From Candidatus Omnitrophota bacterium (GTDB lineage Bacteria > Omnitrophota > Gorgyraeia > Zapsychrales > JANLHA01): a stretch of 64,000 nucleotides of DNA. The DNA is taken from the NCBI GenBank assembly GCA_963662715.1, contig OY759724.1:268670-332669 (forward strand). Reading direction: 5' to 3'. The translations under genes were made by a program, and so were the position numbers. Within the stretch, counting starts at the first letter, position 1. The number at the start of each line of letters is the position of its first letter. The notes below the pieces were generated by a model that was given only the letters and a program-made list of their open reading frames with translations, did no database searches and was not told where the DNA came from. Below, piece after piece: positions 46,803 to 54,850 of this stretch.

Positions 46803-47075
46803 TCACGGTTTATTAATATTTGAAAATGTCGATAGTAACAACAAAATAAATGCTATAAGACCTAAGTAAAACGGGAACCGCACTAAATTCACTCTCTTAC
46901 TATCAAAATATATTTCTGGTTTCTTCAAAAACCACAGATTACCAAAATTCATAGGAAATTTAATAAACGCATCGCTGTATGACAAATCTTTTCGTTTAAA
47001 AATAAACAAAAAAAATATATGGGTCATAAAAGAAAAAACTAATAAACTGAAAAGAATTAGGGTTGTATTTTTCAT
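46803..47075 (-). CDS. Putative RHS-toxin immunity protein (small membrane protein)
   Basis: 90 aa, two TM helices, extremely AT-rich; its start is 18 bp downstream of the RHS toxin stop, on the same strand. Confidence 0.45.
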   Translation of the reverse strand: MKNTTLILFSLLVFSFMTHIFFLFIFKRKDLSYSDAFIKFPMNFGNLWFLKKPEIYFDSKRVNLVRFPFYLGLIAFILLLLSTFSNINKP

Positions 47076-47092
47076 AATATAAAAACCAATTG

Positions 47093-50000
47093 TTATTTTA
47101 ATAAAAAGTTTCGTAATTGAGGAAATTTTCTACCCACATTACTTAATAAATCCTGCAAATCTGGAGGATTTATTGTCCCCTCTTCATGGCCCCATGTAAC
47201 AACGAATTCAGGAGAAATACCAGCCCCAATTCCTCCAGCAATTCCACATGCACCTCCCAGCTCTCCTTCTCCATAAGTACCGGTTCCAGATATCTGTCCC
47301 GCAACACCCTGTCCAGCAGCGGCAAATCCAGATATTGAGAATCCAAATTGCGAAATGTCTTCAGGGTCAATGAATGTTTCATAGATACCGACCTGTATGC
47401 TAACATACGCACCTCCTTTAGGTCCAACACCAACTGAACCATAAAACCATCGATGGTACTCACCAGTAGTAATATTGACTAATATCATTTCTCCACCGCC
47501 GCCAGTCAAACCTAAACCACCGGAGCCGCCAGCTACTATATACAACCATTTCTCCAACCCCATCGGATCTACAAAATTCACCGGATCGCCGAGGGTGTAC
47601 GCATACAGATCCCAATCCCCACCATCAAAACCGATAGGATCTTTGGCCGTCCATCTCCCTACTTCTGGGTCGTAATCGCGGAAGCCGAAGCGGACGAGGC
47701 CAGTATCGCGATCGTGGAGACCCCCAGCAAAACCGAATGGGACTTCGAAGCTTGGTGCGCTGTCGTTAATGATGTTTCCGAAAGAATCGTAGTCGATGCG
47801 CTTGACAACTGCCCCACTTGCATCGGTGACTACGCGCAACGAGCCGACTTGATCATAGGTCAAGTAGTAAGCGGAACCACCCTTCACCATTTTAAATGGC
47901 ATTCTAGCGTCAGCATACTCAAACCGCATCAGTAGGTTATTCGAGCCGTTATATACCGCCAATAACTGCGTGAGGCCATCCCAGAGATATTTCTCGGTTG
48001 TAACGCTGTTGACTTGCTTGGCGATCCTTCTGCCTAGTGGATCGTGGACATATTTGATGGTATTTCCACCCGGAAGGGCTACCTCAAGCAGTTCTCCTCT
48101 TGAAGAATAATCATAGGTCGTTGAAGATATGCCTTCGACTTTCGTCCGCAGAAATCCGTCATCATCATACTGATACGTTGTACTTCCTGCGGTTAAAAGC
48201 TGGTCCTCATCATTGTAGCCGTAGCTCTTACCGCTGATCCCCCGAAGAATGTTGGTTTCCAAAGAACGTATGCCATTATTATATGCATATTCTTCAACTA
48301 ATGTACTATCCTTATACACTTTTGTCAATCGTCCAACAGCGTCGTACTCATAAGAATAGTCCGCTGTCACGCCTGCGACGGTTTCGGTCTTAGCCGAAAT
48401 CTGTCCGTTATCATTATACGTCAACGACCAATTCGTGACCGGTAAACTGTTAACTATGACAGCCTGATTCTCCAGTTCGCCATACCCATTAAAGGTGCGG
48501 CCTAGGTTGAGAACACCATCGTCAACAGACTCAGGCAATCCATTATTTGCATTACGGATAATCGTAAAGCCTGAAGCCGAAGTCAACAACCCGTCATTGT
48601 CATACCCAAATCCAGCAGTATCCCCTGAATACGTAAAACCGGTCAATTGAAAATCATTGTTGTATGCATAGGAAAGCGCCTGATTCAGCGTCCCAGCCAA
48701 TGTTTTGGATGTGACCAGAGCGCCGTCATATCCATACGTCACAGATTCGCCGCTCTTGGACATGGTCTGCAACTGCCCTGATGACGGGAAATATATCATA
48801 TCCACATTGCCTTCAGGCGTCTGAATCTGCGTGAGCTGGGTGTTGGTATAGATATTTTTGATAATTTTCCCGGATGGAAACGTCTTCTGCAATAGCCGCC
48901 GGTCTTTATCATAAGTATACGCATAATCAGCAGACAAGGGCGGATCATAGGTTTTAACTCCATTGACCTTGTTATAAATATACCCATGATTGATTGTTTT
49001 CGGGTTAGTCAGCACGGTCATGTTTCCGTTCAAGTCATACGTGAAATGGATATCCGTGGAATCCGGGCGATGCACCGCGGTAGTGCGGCCCACAGCATCA
49101 TATTCAAAGGTCGTGATCTTATGCAGAGGATCTTCAATGGACTGAACATTACCGTCGCTGTCATACATATACTGAGTCTGGCGCGTTCCGGTTGTAACCG
49201 ACTGCAGGCGTCCGTCCGGATAATACAGGTAATCCGTATCCAGCAATCCCGGCGCACTTACCTTTGAAGTTAACAGCGTTGCCGGATCATAGGTCGTCGT
49301 TACTGCCCTGCCTAGCGGCGAGGTCTGAGTGATCTGCGAGGTAAGCGTATCATTAACGGATGAAGATGTCTTGCCGTTAACCGTGACTGTGCGTTCAATA
49401 TGGTCAACCGCGCCATCCGTGTTCGTATCCGTGTATGTGCGGCTAGACGTAGTTTGCATTATCAGCCCTGCCGGAGTTTGTGCAGACATTTCCTTGATAT
49501 ATTTTGTTTTGTACTCCGGATCATAATCATATTGAAAATCAAGGACTGTCCCATCTGGAAGAACTTTGTTGACTGTCAACTCATCCGCGGAGCGGGTGTA
49601 ATCTGTGATCAAGCCGTCAGGGTCTGTAATGGTTGAGCTATATGTCCCATTGGTATCCGTATGATCTAGATACGTTGTGATATTGCCTTCGGCGGTGGTA
49701 ACGGTCGTCTCAATATCGCCGTTATTCAGAACCGTTCGGGCAAAAGATTTATGCCCTTCCTCCTGATCATAGGCATCGGTCAAACGTCCGTTTGCATCGA
49801 ATGTATGCGTGAAATAATTGCCGTTAGGCTCGGTCTCTTTGGTCATGAGCCCGCCTAAAGTATACTCAAAATCATAACCCGTACTGTCAGGATATTCGAT
49901 ACGCGTCAGATGATCATCTGTATCAACGGTCAGTTCGTTGCGAACGCCGTCAGGTGAAATGATCGCGGTGGGTACGCCATCGCCATCGCGTTCGACCGTA

Positions 50001-53560: not shown

Positions 53561-53621
53561 TATATACTCCTCCCGATGAAATTTGACAGTTTACAAGAAA
53601 ATAAATGGGGCGTTATTAACT

Positions 53622-54230
53622 TTATAAAGCGGACAACTTGTCATAAAGCTCTTTCTGGGCTTTAGAAAAAGTCCTGTTAATAGCTAGGTTTGCTCTTTCA
53701 TGTGCTTTTCGGTGATAAGTGGGTCCCGTTCCAGCACCGCTTTCCTCTCGATCATGACAGACAACCTCGGCTAAAGTTACTGGCTGACCGTTTTTAACTT
53801 CAATGACTTCAAAACGAATGCTAATCTCAAAAGCGGCTTTGGTGAATAACATCATTTTAGCTTTATAATGGACATCTTCTATTGTGACTCGAAGAACAAG
53901 GGGATGGTCTGCTGAGGCTGAATTTTCTTCCTGCTCTCTACCGAAGAGCGACGTCATTAAATTTTTGCTGTTTTGCAAAAAGACATCATAGAAATCCGCA
54001 CGCATACGTTCTAGCCTTTCTCCTTTGTGACCAATCGGGAATATTTCCAAAACACGAGCATCTTCAAAGGAGTCAGTATCGATTGTCCACGGACGGTTTG
54101 AAACAAGCTTCGACTCCATCTTGAATGAATGGTGCGTCCGTGAAGCCATGCGCTCAGATGTGCATGCTGAGAACAGAATCGGTAAAAATAAGATTGAAAA
54201 ATATATCTTCACACATTTATTCATAATCAT
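53622..54230 (-). CDS. Lipoprotein (hypothetical), upstream member of the RHS operon
   Basis: 202 aa; signal peptide with lipobox LFSAC. Confidence 0.6.
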   Translation of the reverse strand: MIMNKCVKIYFSILFLPILFSACTSERMASRTHHSFKMESKLVSNRPWTIDTDSFEDARVLEIFPIGHKGERLERMRADFYDVFLQNSKNLMTSLFGREQEENSASADHPLVLRVTIEDVHYKAKMMLFTKAAFEISIRFEVIEVKNGQPVTLAEVVCHDREESGAGTGPTYHRKAHERANLAINRTFSKAQKELYDKLSAL

Positions 54231-54850
54231 TACTCCTTTTTATTAAGCAAGGGAGAATTATTTATAAGTTTCTTAACTAGGCTCCCAATTGCCGTTTTTT
54301 GCGGATCAGTGCTAAATTCATGAATCACCGTCCTTGAACTTGAAAGAGCAACTAAAGTAAAAGGTGTGTCGATCCAATCCTGATTTGCCTGTTCAGACCA
54401 GAACAATTTCCCTGTTTCATTATCGACAATATAAAGGGTAACTGCGGCTTTTCCCGTTTCTGCCAAAATGGGAATACCCTCTTTTTCATTTTTATCGATA
54501 GTATAAATAAGGACGTGTTTGAAGGCTGTCGGGGCTATAGCACGCATGTTTTTTCCTGATTTAATTGATTCGATTTGGGCTGGAGTGATTTTGAAATCAG
54601 GACAGCAATCACTTGAAATGATGAGTGAATAACCGTTATCGGCTAAATTACTGACTATTCCTGTATAAAGCCAATTCTTAATGGGGTAATATTTCTCTTT
54701 AGAGCCTGTGTCCTCAATAACAAGCAATGGCGCGAGAATGACTTTTTCACGAGTCGAATAATCAGCGGTATGCTCCATAGTACCGCAACCCGCAAAGATA
54801 AGAAGGAAAACGATAAAGGTAAATAAAAATACCGACCTTTTTATAGACAT
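54230..54850 (-). CDS. Lipoprotein (hypothetical), first gene of the RHS operon
   Basis: 206 aa; lipobox IFAGC; its stop overlaps the start of the next lipoprotein gene. Confidence 0.6.
   Translation of the reverse strand: MSIKRSVFLFTFIVFLLIFAGCGTMEHTADYSTREKVILAPLLVIEDTGSKEKYYPIKNWLYTGIVSNLADNGYSLIISSDCCPDFKITPAQIESIKSGKNMRAIAPTAFKHVLIYTIDKNEKEGIPILAETGKAAVTLYIVDNETGKLFWSEQANQDWIDTPFTLVALSSSRTVIHEFSTDPQKTAIGSLVKKLINNSPLLNKKE

Follow-up and report, generated by a model that had tools for sequence, protein, structure and literature searches.

This report concerns a minus-strand operon in a 64,000-nt stretch of DNA from a Candidatus Omnitrophota bacterium (assembly GCA_963662715.1, contig OY759724.1, positions 268,670 to 332,669), which we call the window and to which all coordinates refer. 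The operon consists of four open reading frames (ORFs) on the minus strand: lipo1 (54230-54850), which encodes a predicted lipoprotein of 206 amino acids (aa); lipo2 (53622-54230), which encodes a second predicted lipoprotein of 202 aa; a gene for a 2155-aa protein (47093-53560), which its sequence identifies as a variant bacterial teneurin-like protein (TLP); and a 90-aa ORF (46803-47075) with two transmembrane (TM) segments predicted from hydropathy. An initial annotation, made from the sequence alone, had described four co-directional, tightly spaced genes, and the coordinates bear this out. The start codon of lipo2 overlaps the stop codon of lipo1 by 1 nt (TAATG), 61 nt separate lipo2 from the TLP gene and 17 nt separate the TLP gene from the 90-aa ORF. 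Strong Shine-Dalgarno (SD) sites precede lipo1 (GAGGGGGG), lipo2 (AAGGAG) and the TLP gene (GGGAGGAG), and no such site is present ahead of the 90-aa ORF. The GC content of the TLP gene is 46%, and that of the lipoprotein genes is 38-41%, like the surrounding island. The same annotation had noted a sharp fall in GC between the C-terminal tip of the large protein and the 90-aa ORF; the drop is real, but it starts from 43.1% in the tip, not from about 50%, and ends at 26.7%. No flanking repeat was found around the operon.

Bacterial TLPs have been described by Jackson et al. in 2018 (PMC5851990) and by Raoelijaona et al. in Nature Communications in 2026 (PMC13018210). The latter study, which found 139 positive genomes, defines the class by three domains, an FN-plug, a six-bladed NHL beta-propeller and a YD-shell, and its structural example is the TLP of Bacillus inaquosorum (BiTLP; PDB 9pt5 and 9ifo). 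According to these authors, a TIP region is present in 96% of TLPs, the proteins have Sec signals for signal peptidase I (SPI) or signal peptidase II (SPII), a polymorphic cargo of about 15 kDa stays inside the shell once the protein has cleaved itself, a second cut is made in the plug and an immunity gene lies just downstream of the TLP gene. They state that delivery and release are unknown (PMC13018210).

On the basis of its sequence matches, the 2155-aa protein is a member of this class and not a generic RHS protein. Among the PDB sequences, 9pt5 and 9ifo, both entitled 'Teneurin-like protein', match it best by far (E about 1e-190), and metazoan teneurins come next at 1e-47 to 1e-68; the Rhs proteins of type VI secretion systems (T6SS) match at about 1e-30 and at the shell end only. 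The order of domains is a signal peptide, Ig-like repeats, a transthyretin-like domain (TTR), TIP, FN-plug, a LamG domain, YD-shell, RHS core and a 153-aa cargo, and the reading frame is unbroken over all 2155 codons. A continuous alignment to BiTLP residues 397-842 (9ifo, E 6e-76) spans TTR, TIP and FN-plug.

The predicted signal peptide, read from the translation, covers residues 1 to about 29 (MTQHFKKSIWLIVLGIVCALFSFLTISSA/E; 53474-53560); it is of the Sec/SPI type, with a K-K pair, a hydrophobic core and the cleavage site SSA/E, and has no lipobox. Three Ig-like repeats of about 80 aa each follow at residues ~138-385 (52406-53149). They were recognized by self-similarity in the translation; tblastn gives multiple offset matches of this region to five relatives (L001-L004 and L009), and there are weak I-set and PKD-like Pfam matches. 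The TTR occupies residues 408-493 (52082-52339; PF25020 TTR_TEN1-4, E 9.8e-18). The next region, residues 494-767 (51260-52081), aligns to BiTLP ~490-700 and is the equivalent of the region named TIP in PMC13018210; the closest TLPs share 62-66% identity with it over residues 495-765. The FN-plug is at residues 768 to about 950 (50711-51259). Its match to PF24329 (E 4.9e-4 on the sub-sequence) is under the Pfam gathering score, and its support is the continuous BiTLP alignment. The plug cysteine is kept, C727 (codon at 51380-51382) corresponding to C719 of BiTLP, and so is the plug cleavage site just upstream of the FN-plug, which lies between N732 and S733 here and between G723 and S724 in BiTLP. 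The LamG/ConA-like lectin domain is at residues 963-1124 (50189-50674; PF13385 Laminin_G_3, E 2.5e-19 and 6.4e-20), the YD-shell at residues 1144-1988 (47597-50131; PF25023 TEN_YD-shell, E 2.7e-42, and RHS_repeat, E 2.2e-34) and the RHS-associated core at residues 1924-2002 (47555-47791; TIGR03696, E 1.4e-21). Twin DPxG motifs are present, DPIG at D1974 and DPMG at D1998, and by analogy with BiTLP the protein is predicted to cleave itself after DPMGL (L2002). This would release as cargo the C-terminal tip, residues 2003-2155 (47096-47554).

Thus, the protein shares with BiTLP the Ig-like repeats, TTR, TIP, FN-plug, YD-shell and RHS core in the same order, the plug Cys and Ser, the DPxG-x20-DPxGL arrangement, a Sec signal, a cargo of roughly 15 kDa and a small ORF directly downstream. 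It differs from BiTLP in having a 160-aa LamG/ConA-like domain instead of NHL, one of the three domains that define TLPs, and the locus differs in being carried by an integrative conjugative element (ICE, see below), in having two orphan lipoprotein genes upstream and in its cargo family. The protein also resembles the RHS/YD toxins (PMC3482391) and the T6SS Rhs effectors (PDB 7q97 and 8h8a), with which it shares a YD shell, an aspartyl autoprotease in the core, an exchangeable tip and a downstream immunity gene, the last at the level of a candidate. Unlike these systems, it combines a Sec signal with N-terminal modules of the teneurin type and lacks PAAR, VgrG, DUF6531 and chaperone genes. 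A YD cocoon around an autoproteolytically released cargo is likewise known from TcB-TcC of the Tc (ABC) toxins, but the window protein is a single polypeptide and has no TcA partner.

The initial annotation had seen a toxin-type RHS locus whose large protein carries a signal peptide and no T6SS (PAAR/VgrG) or type VII secretion system (T7SS) markers. This holds, and the locus can be described as a polymorphic-toxin locus with a Sec-exported YD/RHS shell protein. No PAAR, VgrG or prePAAR/Eag domain was found with Pfam and NCBIfam in the TLP or its neighbours, and a T6SS or T7SS effector was rejected since the marker domains are absent. The Sec-dependent secretion had been taken for a less-characterised delivery route, but Sec signals of the SPI or SPII type are the described norm for bacterial TLPs, and the combination of RHS with a Sec signal is thereby explained.

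The most unusual feature of the protein, which the initial annotation did not mention, is that the LamG/ConA-like domain occupies the slot that normally holds the NHL propeller. A scan with one genome per species gave 60 related TLP loci. The closest TLPs come from Desulfobulbales-like and other 'deltaproteobacterial' metagenome-assembled genomes (MAGs), the nearest being that of Ca. Electrothrix gigas (L001), with about 51-53% identity over two blastp segments. The alignment to this protein is interrupted at window residues 920-1075, which face the NHL blades of L001, and residues 960-1130 match none of the TLP loci. The slot could be compared in 48 loci in which both flanks were placeable (L031 was unreadable in frame). 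With the L001 propeller as phmmer query, NHL was found in the slot in 45 of the 48 relatives, and the same query did not find the window protein; LamG was found in the slot in none of the 48. The window TLP has no NHL Pfam match, and its interval between FN-plug and YD-shell is too short for a propeller. TcB-TcC has a beta-propeller at the position equivalent to NHL, whereas the window protein has no propeller. Two of the relatives (L041 and L042) have a 359-aa unannotated module, neither NHL nor LamG, between FN-plug and YD-shell; these two are the same in TLP sequence, though their contigs were binned to two phyla (Anaerolineaceae and Pontiellaceae MAGs). There is no compositional sign of a recent swap, LamG having 44.7% GC and the rest of the gene 45-48%. 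It is the NHL domain that confers partner specificity on animal teneurins (PMC6425310), and the LamG swap would presumably change what the shell binds.

The cargo tip belongs to a family that appears not to have been described so far. Among 1.84 billion representatives searched exhaustively with HMMER, 50 proteins match at E<=1e-3, 16 of them at E<=1e-10. In every case the matching segment lies at the extreme C-terminus, nearly always directly after DPxGL, and the carriers include DUF6531-type RHS proteins, one DUF637/CdiA-like protein and two TLPs (including L001); relatives of the window TLP bear other tips. Judged by these sequences, the tip is a genuine mobile polymorphic-toxin tip. No member of the family matches a Pfam family. 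The tip is absent from the survey of Zhang et al. 2012 (PMC3482391), in the text of which 'Vap' and 'Rhodococcus equi' do not occur and in the table of which the 'pore-forming toxins' row holds only the two-helix Tox-WTIP; its motifs were not found in the sequence files of PMC13018210, one of which was available in part. A word-indexed search with the tip alone gave no match, and the same search with the family alignment gave a single one (P0037) because Gly-rich words saturate the index.

An AlphaFold2 model of the tip, built from a 38-sequence alignment, has a predicted local distance difference test score (pLDDT) of 92.2 and a predicted template modelling score of 0.82. In this model four long beta-hairpins, that is eight strands, are followed by two helices; the chain is all-beta through residue 127 and the polar helices span residues 130-152. 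The closest fold to the modelled tip is that of the Vap proteins of Rhodococcus equi, a closed 8-stranded beta-barrel. In Foldseek, VapG (probability 1.00) and VapD (0.99) are the only high-probability matches, and Vaps come top by two fold-comparison methods, well above generic 8-stranded barrels. The family consensus GxGAGxSGxxTYTW forms a Gly-rich last strand that ends in Trp, and the window tip has GIGAGISPEFVVTW at this place. Vaps, too, are closed barrels rich in Gly, and their Gly-rich last strand likewise terminates in Trp (PMC4118825); the strand order of the Vap barrel is b1-b2-b3-b8-b5-b6-b7-b4. VapA binds to liposomes, makes them permeable and neutralises the pH of the vacuole; VapB is less active on membranes (PMC10100859). 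The cargo of BiTLP permeabilises membranes when it is sent to the periplasm (PMC13018210).

The tip differs from the Vaps (VapA/B/D/G; R_equi_Vir; PDB 4cv7, 5aeo and 4csb) in several respects. The two share no sequence homology that could be detected; the tip occurs as C-terminal cargo on RHS, TLP and CdiA-like carriers, whereas Vaps are free secreted proteins with a disordered N-terminus; and the tip has two extra C-terminal helices, a membrane immunity partner (in the family) and an inter-bacterial rather than a macrophage context. A helical glycine-zipper toxin was rejected, since the model is all-beta at pLDDT 92 and has only polar C-terminal helices. Hence the Gly-zipper-like tip of the initial annotation gives way to a predicted closed barrel, and the ~140-aa Gly-rich segment after DPMGL turns out to be indeed rich in Gly (23%) but 153 aa long. 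The absence of a recognisable enzyme motif is upheld, as there is no Pfam match and the domain is non-enzymatic-looking, and the proposed membrane activity is plausible in view of the two-TM partner of the family and the membrane effects of VapA. Non-enzymatic and membrane-active is, we infer, the best reading of the tip. The tip has a single Cys, C2105 (47243-47245), which is not conserved in the family. In BiTLP the equivalent of C727 holds the cargo by a disulfide, and it is conceivable that C2105 and C727 tether the cargo to the plug in an analogous way.

The partner of the family was found in metagenomes. A scan with a 5-sequence tip sub-alignment gave six loci, five of which have sequence after the tip homologue, and in all five an ORF of 146-184 aa starts within about 12 bp. 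In each of the encoded proteins two TM segments at the N-terminus precede a C-terminal domain, and all five can be aligned as a single family (A3). Membrane-targeting toxins usually have a membrane-embedded immunity partner, and the conserved two-TM partner of the tip family therefore supports a membrane target. An apparent likeness of a D. alkaliphilus immunity protein to family A3 was rejected (hhalign probability 0.6%). Two of the loci examined (L066, 929-4400, and L068, 5748-9444) have tandem orphan arrays of RHS core plus tip with the same tip family, in which each tip-family gene is followed by a two-TM immunity gene; no orphan tip or immunity cassette was found elsewhere in the window.

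In the window itself, the candidate for a positional immunity gene is the 90-aa ORF. Its two predicted TM segments and its start 17 nt after the TLP stop codon, the canonical position of TLP immunity genes, agree with the two-TM immunity protein that had been annotated; its lack of a ribosome-binding site and of a homologue, and its place outside family A3, do not. Many of the immunity proteins published for TLPs are small and have two TM segments, and the 90-aa ORF is like them in size and type, but it is not homologous to 14 small membrane-protein examples that were chosen from the published list. An ORF of at least 90 codons arose in 61 of 20000 shuffles of the same 349-nt stretch, and the frame of the ORF is the best-scoring of the six.

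The two genes upstream of the TLP gene are both called in the source annotation, in which lipo2 starts two codons later and encodes 200 aa. Their in-frame codon scores are positive (for lipo1 a log-odds of +0.17, negative off-frame), and the lipoboxes that had been annotated are plausible, LIFAG/C with Gly at +2 in lipo1 and LFSA/C in lipo2. Both are orphans. Lipo1 and the 200-aa form of lipo2 are singleton clusters at 90% identity in a collection of 15 billion proteins; no relative was found in 5.8 billion clustered proteins, 62 TLP loci, the PDB or a plasmid collection, no match in four hidden Markov model libraries, including Pfam, NCBIfam and PADLOC, and none in a word-indexed search with lipo1 and lipo2 concatenated. 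The single-sequence AlphaFold2 model of lipo1 is unusable (pLDDT 46). Co-transcription of lipo1, lipo2 and the TLP gene is plausible because no promoter or terminator is predicted in the 61-nt lipo2-TLP gap on the gene strand. The link of the lipoproteins to the toxin is one of adjacency only. Small lipoprotein genes are present upstream of the TLP gene in none of the 16 relatives examined, where the neighbours are unrelated housekeeping genes, and the suggestion that the lipoproteins help in secretion is unsupported.

The operon lies between a conjugation module with an ArdA gene and a cluster of defence genes. The conjugation module (26471-41562, minus strand) encodes a tyrosine integrase, a TraG/VirD4 coupling protein, a MobA/VirD2-type relaxase, TrbI, CagX/TrbG, TrbL/VirB6 and a VirB4/TrbE ATPase. 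This complete module is nearby, and therefore the toxin operon is accessory cargo of an ICE; the contig on which it lies is 3.36 Mb long. The ArdA anti-restriction protein (45027-45611; PF07275, E 2e-43) is encoded between the type IV secretion system genes and the toxin operon. Next to the 90-aa ORF, 59 nt after it, is a gene (45847-46743) with the SD site AAGGAG and a TTG start, which may share its transcript; the 298-aa product has an N-terminal 180 aa without assignment and an HPr-like phosphocarrier domain (PF00381, E 6e-10). Upstream of the operon, the defence cluster (56643-61055) encodes a protein with Schlafen/AlbA_2 and HATPase_c_4 domains, AbiEi (E 1.6e-68) and an 880-aa Ppl-like ATPase (PADLOC E 1.9e-33), the gene for which overlaps the Schlafen/AlbA_2 gene. 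The gene at 55192-55734 encodes a secreted protein of 180 aa, whose PEP-CTERM sorting signal implies a host exosortase system. Two tandem 42-nt direct repeats, 88% identical (44436-44519), lie just upstream of a gene for a 305-aa protein (43499-44416) and could be an iteron-like or operator element.

Taken as a whole, the explanation that we favor, with moderate confidence, is an ICE-borne TLP with LamG in the propeller slot and a Vap-like, membrane-acting cargo. The 2155-aa protein would be exported by Sec via its type-I signal peptide and would fold into a YD-repeat shell sealed by the FN-plug. It would then cleave itself after L2002, and probably also between N732 and S733 in the plug, while the 153-aa cargo would remain enclosed in the shell. 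The outer modules, that is the three Ig-like repeats, TTR, TIP and LamG, would display the shell on the surface of the cell and select its target. The cargo, a predicted closed barrel with a Gly-rich surface, would act on the target membrane, as an ion or proton leak, and not as an enzyme. The 90-aa ORF, by its position, is a candidate for immunity, and the lipoproteins are probably co-transcribed neighbours to which no role has been assigned.

Several observations weigh against this explanation, its weak points being the fold-only Vap link, a substituted Glu and the unproven 90-aa ORF and lipoproteins. The Vap link is at the fold level only, with 8-19% identity: PF05526 (R_equi_Vir) hits none of the 38 tip-family members, even at E<=10, a profile search of the PDB sequences finds no Vap, and the top structural match, VapB, is the less membrane-active Vap. 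The window tip has Gly at residue 2021, where 90% of the family have Glu (the GEGG motif), and Asn in place of the Asp of 'IDP'. Its activity may be reduced or lost; the remaining conserved positions of the tip are all intact. A Sec-exported 240-kDa shell would, moreover, still have to cross the outer membrane. As for immunity, the window has no copy of the canonical immunity gene of the tip family, and the 90-aa ORF is unrelated to the A3 alignment (hhalign probability 0.5%). It has no homologue in the TLP loci, in the plasmid collection or elsewhere in the window, is not called in the source annotation under any of its three possible starts, and has atypical codon usage, with negative log-odds and an excess of T at codon position 2, a bias that is enough to produce hydrophobic, 'TM-like' peptides. 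The L001 tip is also without a downstream ORF; only a repeat array is found there. This dense array of repeated elements (L001 16340-16860) directly follows the TLP stop codon, and similar repeats occur near 17400-17800.

These points give room to other explanations, the most credible of which, if still doubtful, concerns immunity: the 90-aa ORF may be no gene, or no immunity factor, and the shell and the export may protect the producer. The missing SD site, the codon usage, the missing annotation and homologues and the situation in L001, where the same kind of tip is followed by no ORF, would all agree with this. However, a chance ORF is unlikely at 27% GC, as the shuffles noted above indicate, the frame is the best of six and the start is at the canonical position, and the shells of published chimeras failed to shield E. 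coli from the toxins inside them (PMC13018210). An improbable alternative is that the TLP is mainly a surface adhesin or recognition molecule and that its cargo has decayed into a non-toxic remnant. Such a view would account for the lack of the canonical immunity gene in both the window and L001, and it would fit the loss of the near-invariant family Glu and the presence of Ig-like repeats and a lectin-type LamG; moreover, a role in signalling or adhesion is left open in PMC13018210. On the other hand, both self-cleavage sites, the other conserved tip positions and the 2155-codon frame are intact, and a small two-TM ORF is located exactly where TLP immunity genes are, many published examples of which are small membrane proteins.

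We regard three further ideas as unlikely, each slightly more so than the adhesin. The tip could be a transmembrane beta-barrel like the outer membrane proteins (OMPs) and form a small pore in the outer membrane of the target, which would match the 'OMP-like' cargo class of the 2026 TLP paper. Alternatively, the lipoprotein pair could be a dedicated outer-membrane anchor or export module that replaces in trans the lipid anchor of some relatives. The signal types of the relatives are of interest here, since the L001 TLP is itself a lipoprotein (lipobox LLG/C) and the window TLP is of the SPI type; furthermore, the lipoprotein genes are translationally coupled, the 61-nt gap between them and the TLP gene holds no predicted promoter or terminator on the gene strand, and neither lipoprotein has Asp at +2, which by the E. 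coli rule would send them to the outer membrane. Against this, the SPI-like TLPs of four other relatives (L002, L003, L004 and L010) are without such upstream genes, no homologue of the lipoproteins was found, there is no usable structure prediction for them and their GC content fits the island and not the TLP gene. Finally, and with as little probability, the pair might be the missing outer-membrane display or export device of a bacterial teneurin, the propeller slot an exchangeable receptor-binding cartridge, as the LamG swap and the other module in L041 and L042 would then show, and the tip family an inter-bacterial ancestor or sibling of the R. equi Vaps, all at once. We continue to prefer the ICE-borne TLP with a LamG domain and a membrane-acting cargo.

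The TLP class itself was known; what is new is an ICE-borne TLP whose propeller slot holds LamG and whose cargo comes from a tip family of predicted Vap fold that had not been described. That the locus sits on an ICE, beside anti-restriction and defence genes, shows horizontal spread of weapons of this kind. The synaptic adhesion receptors of animals descend from bacterial teneurins, and the LamG variant shows that the propeller slot is modular. As the protein would work like a TLP and yet be missed by a survey keyed to NHL, surveys of this kind undercount the TLP family. There is a slim chance that the lipoproteins have a bearing on the route by which TLPs are delivered. The mode of action of the Vaps is still debated, and a tip family with a membrane immunity protein could allow toxin-immunity genetics to be used to probe it. 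If the less probable picture of an ancestral tip family, an exchangeable cartridge and a display device were true, the mechanism of the Vaps, which has long been elusive, would become accessible to genetics.

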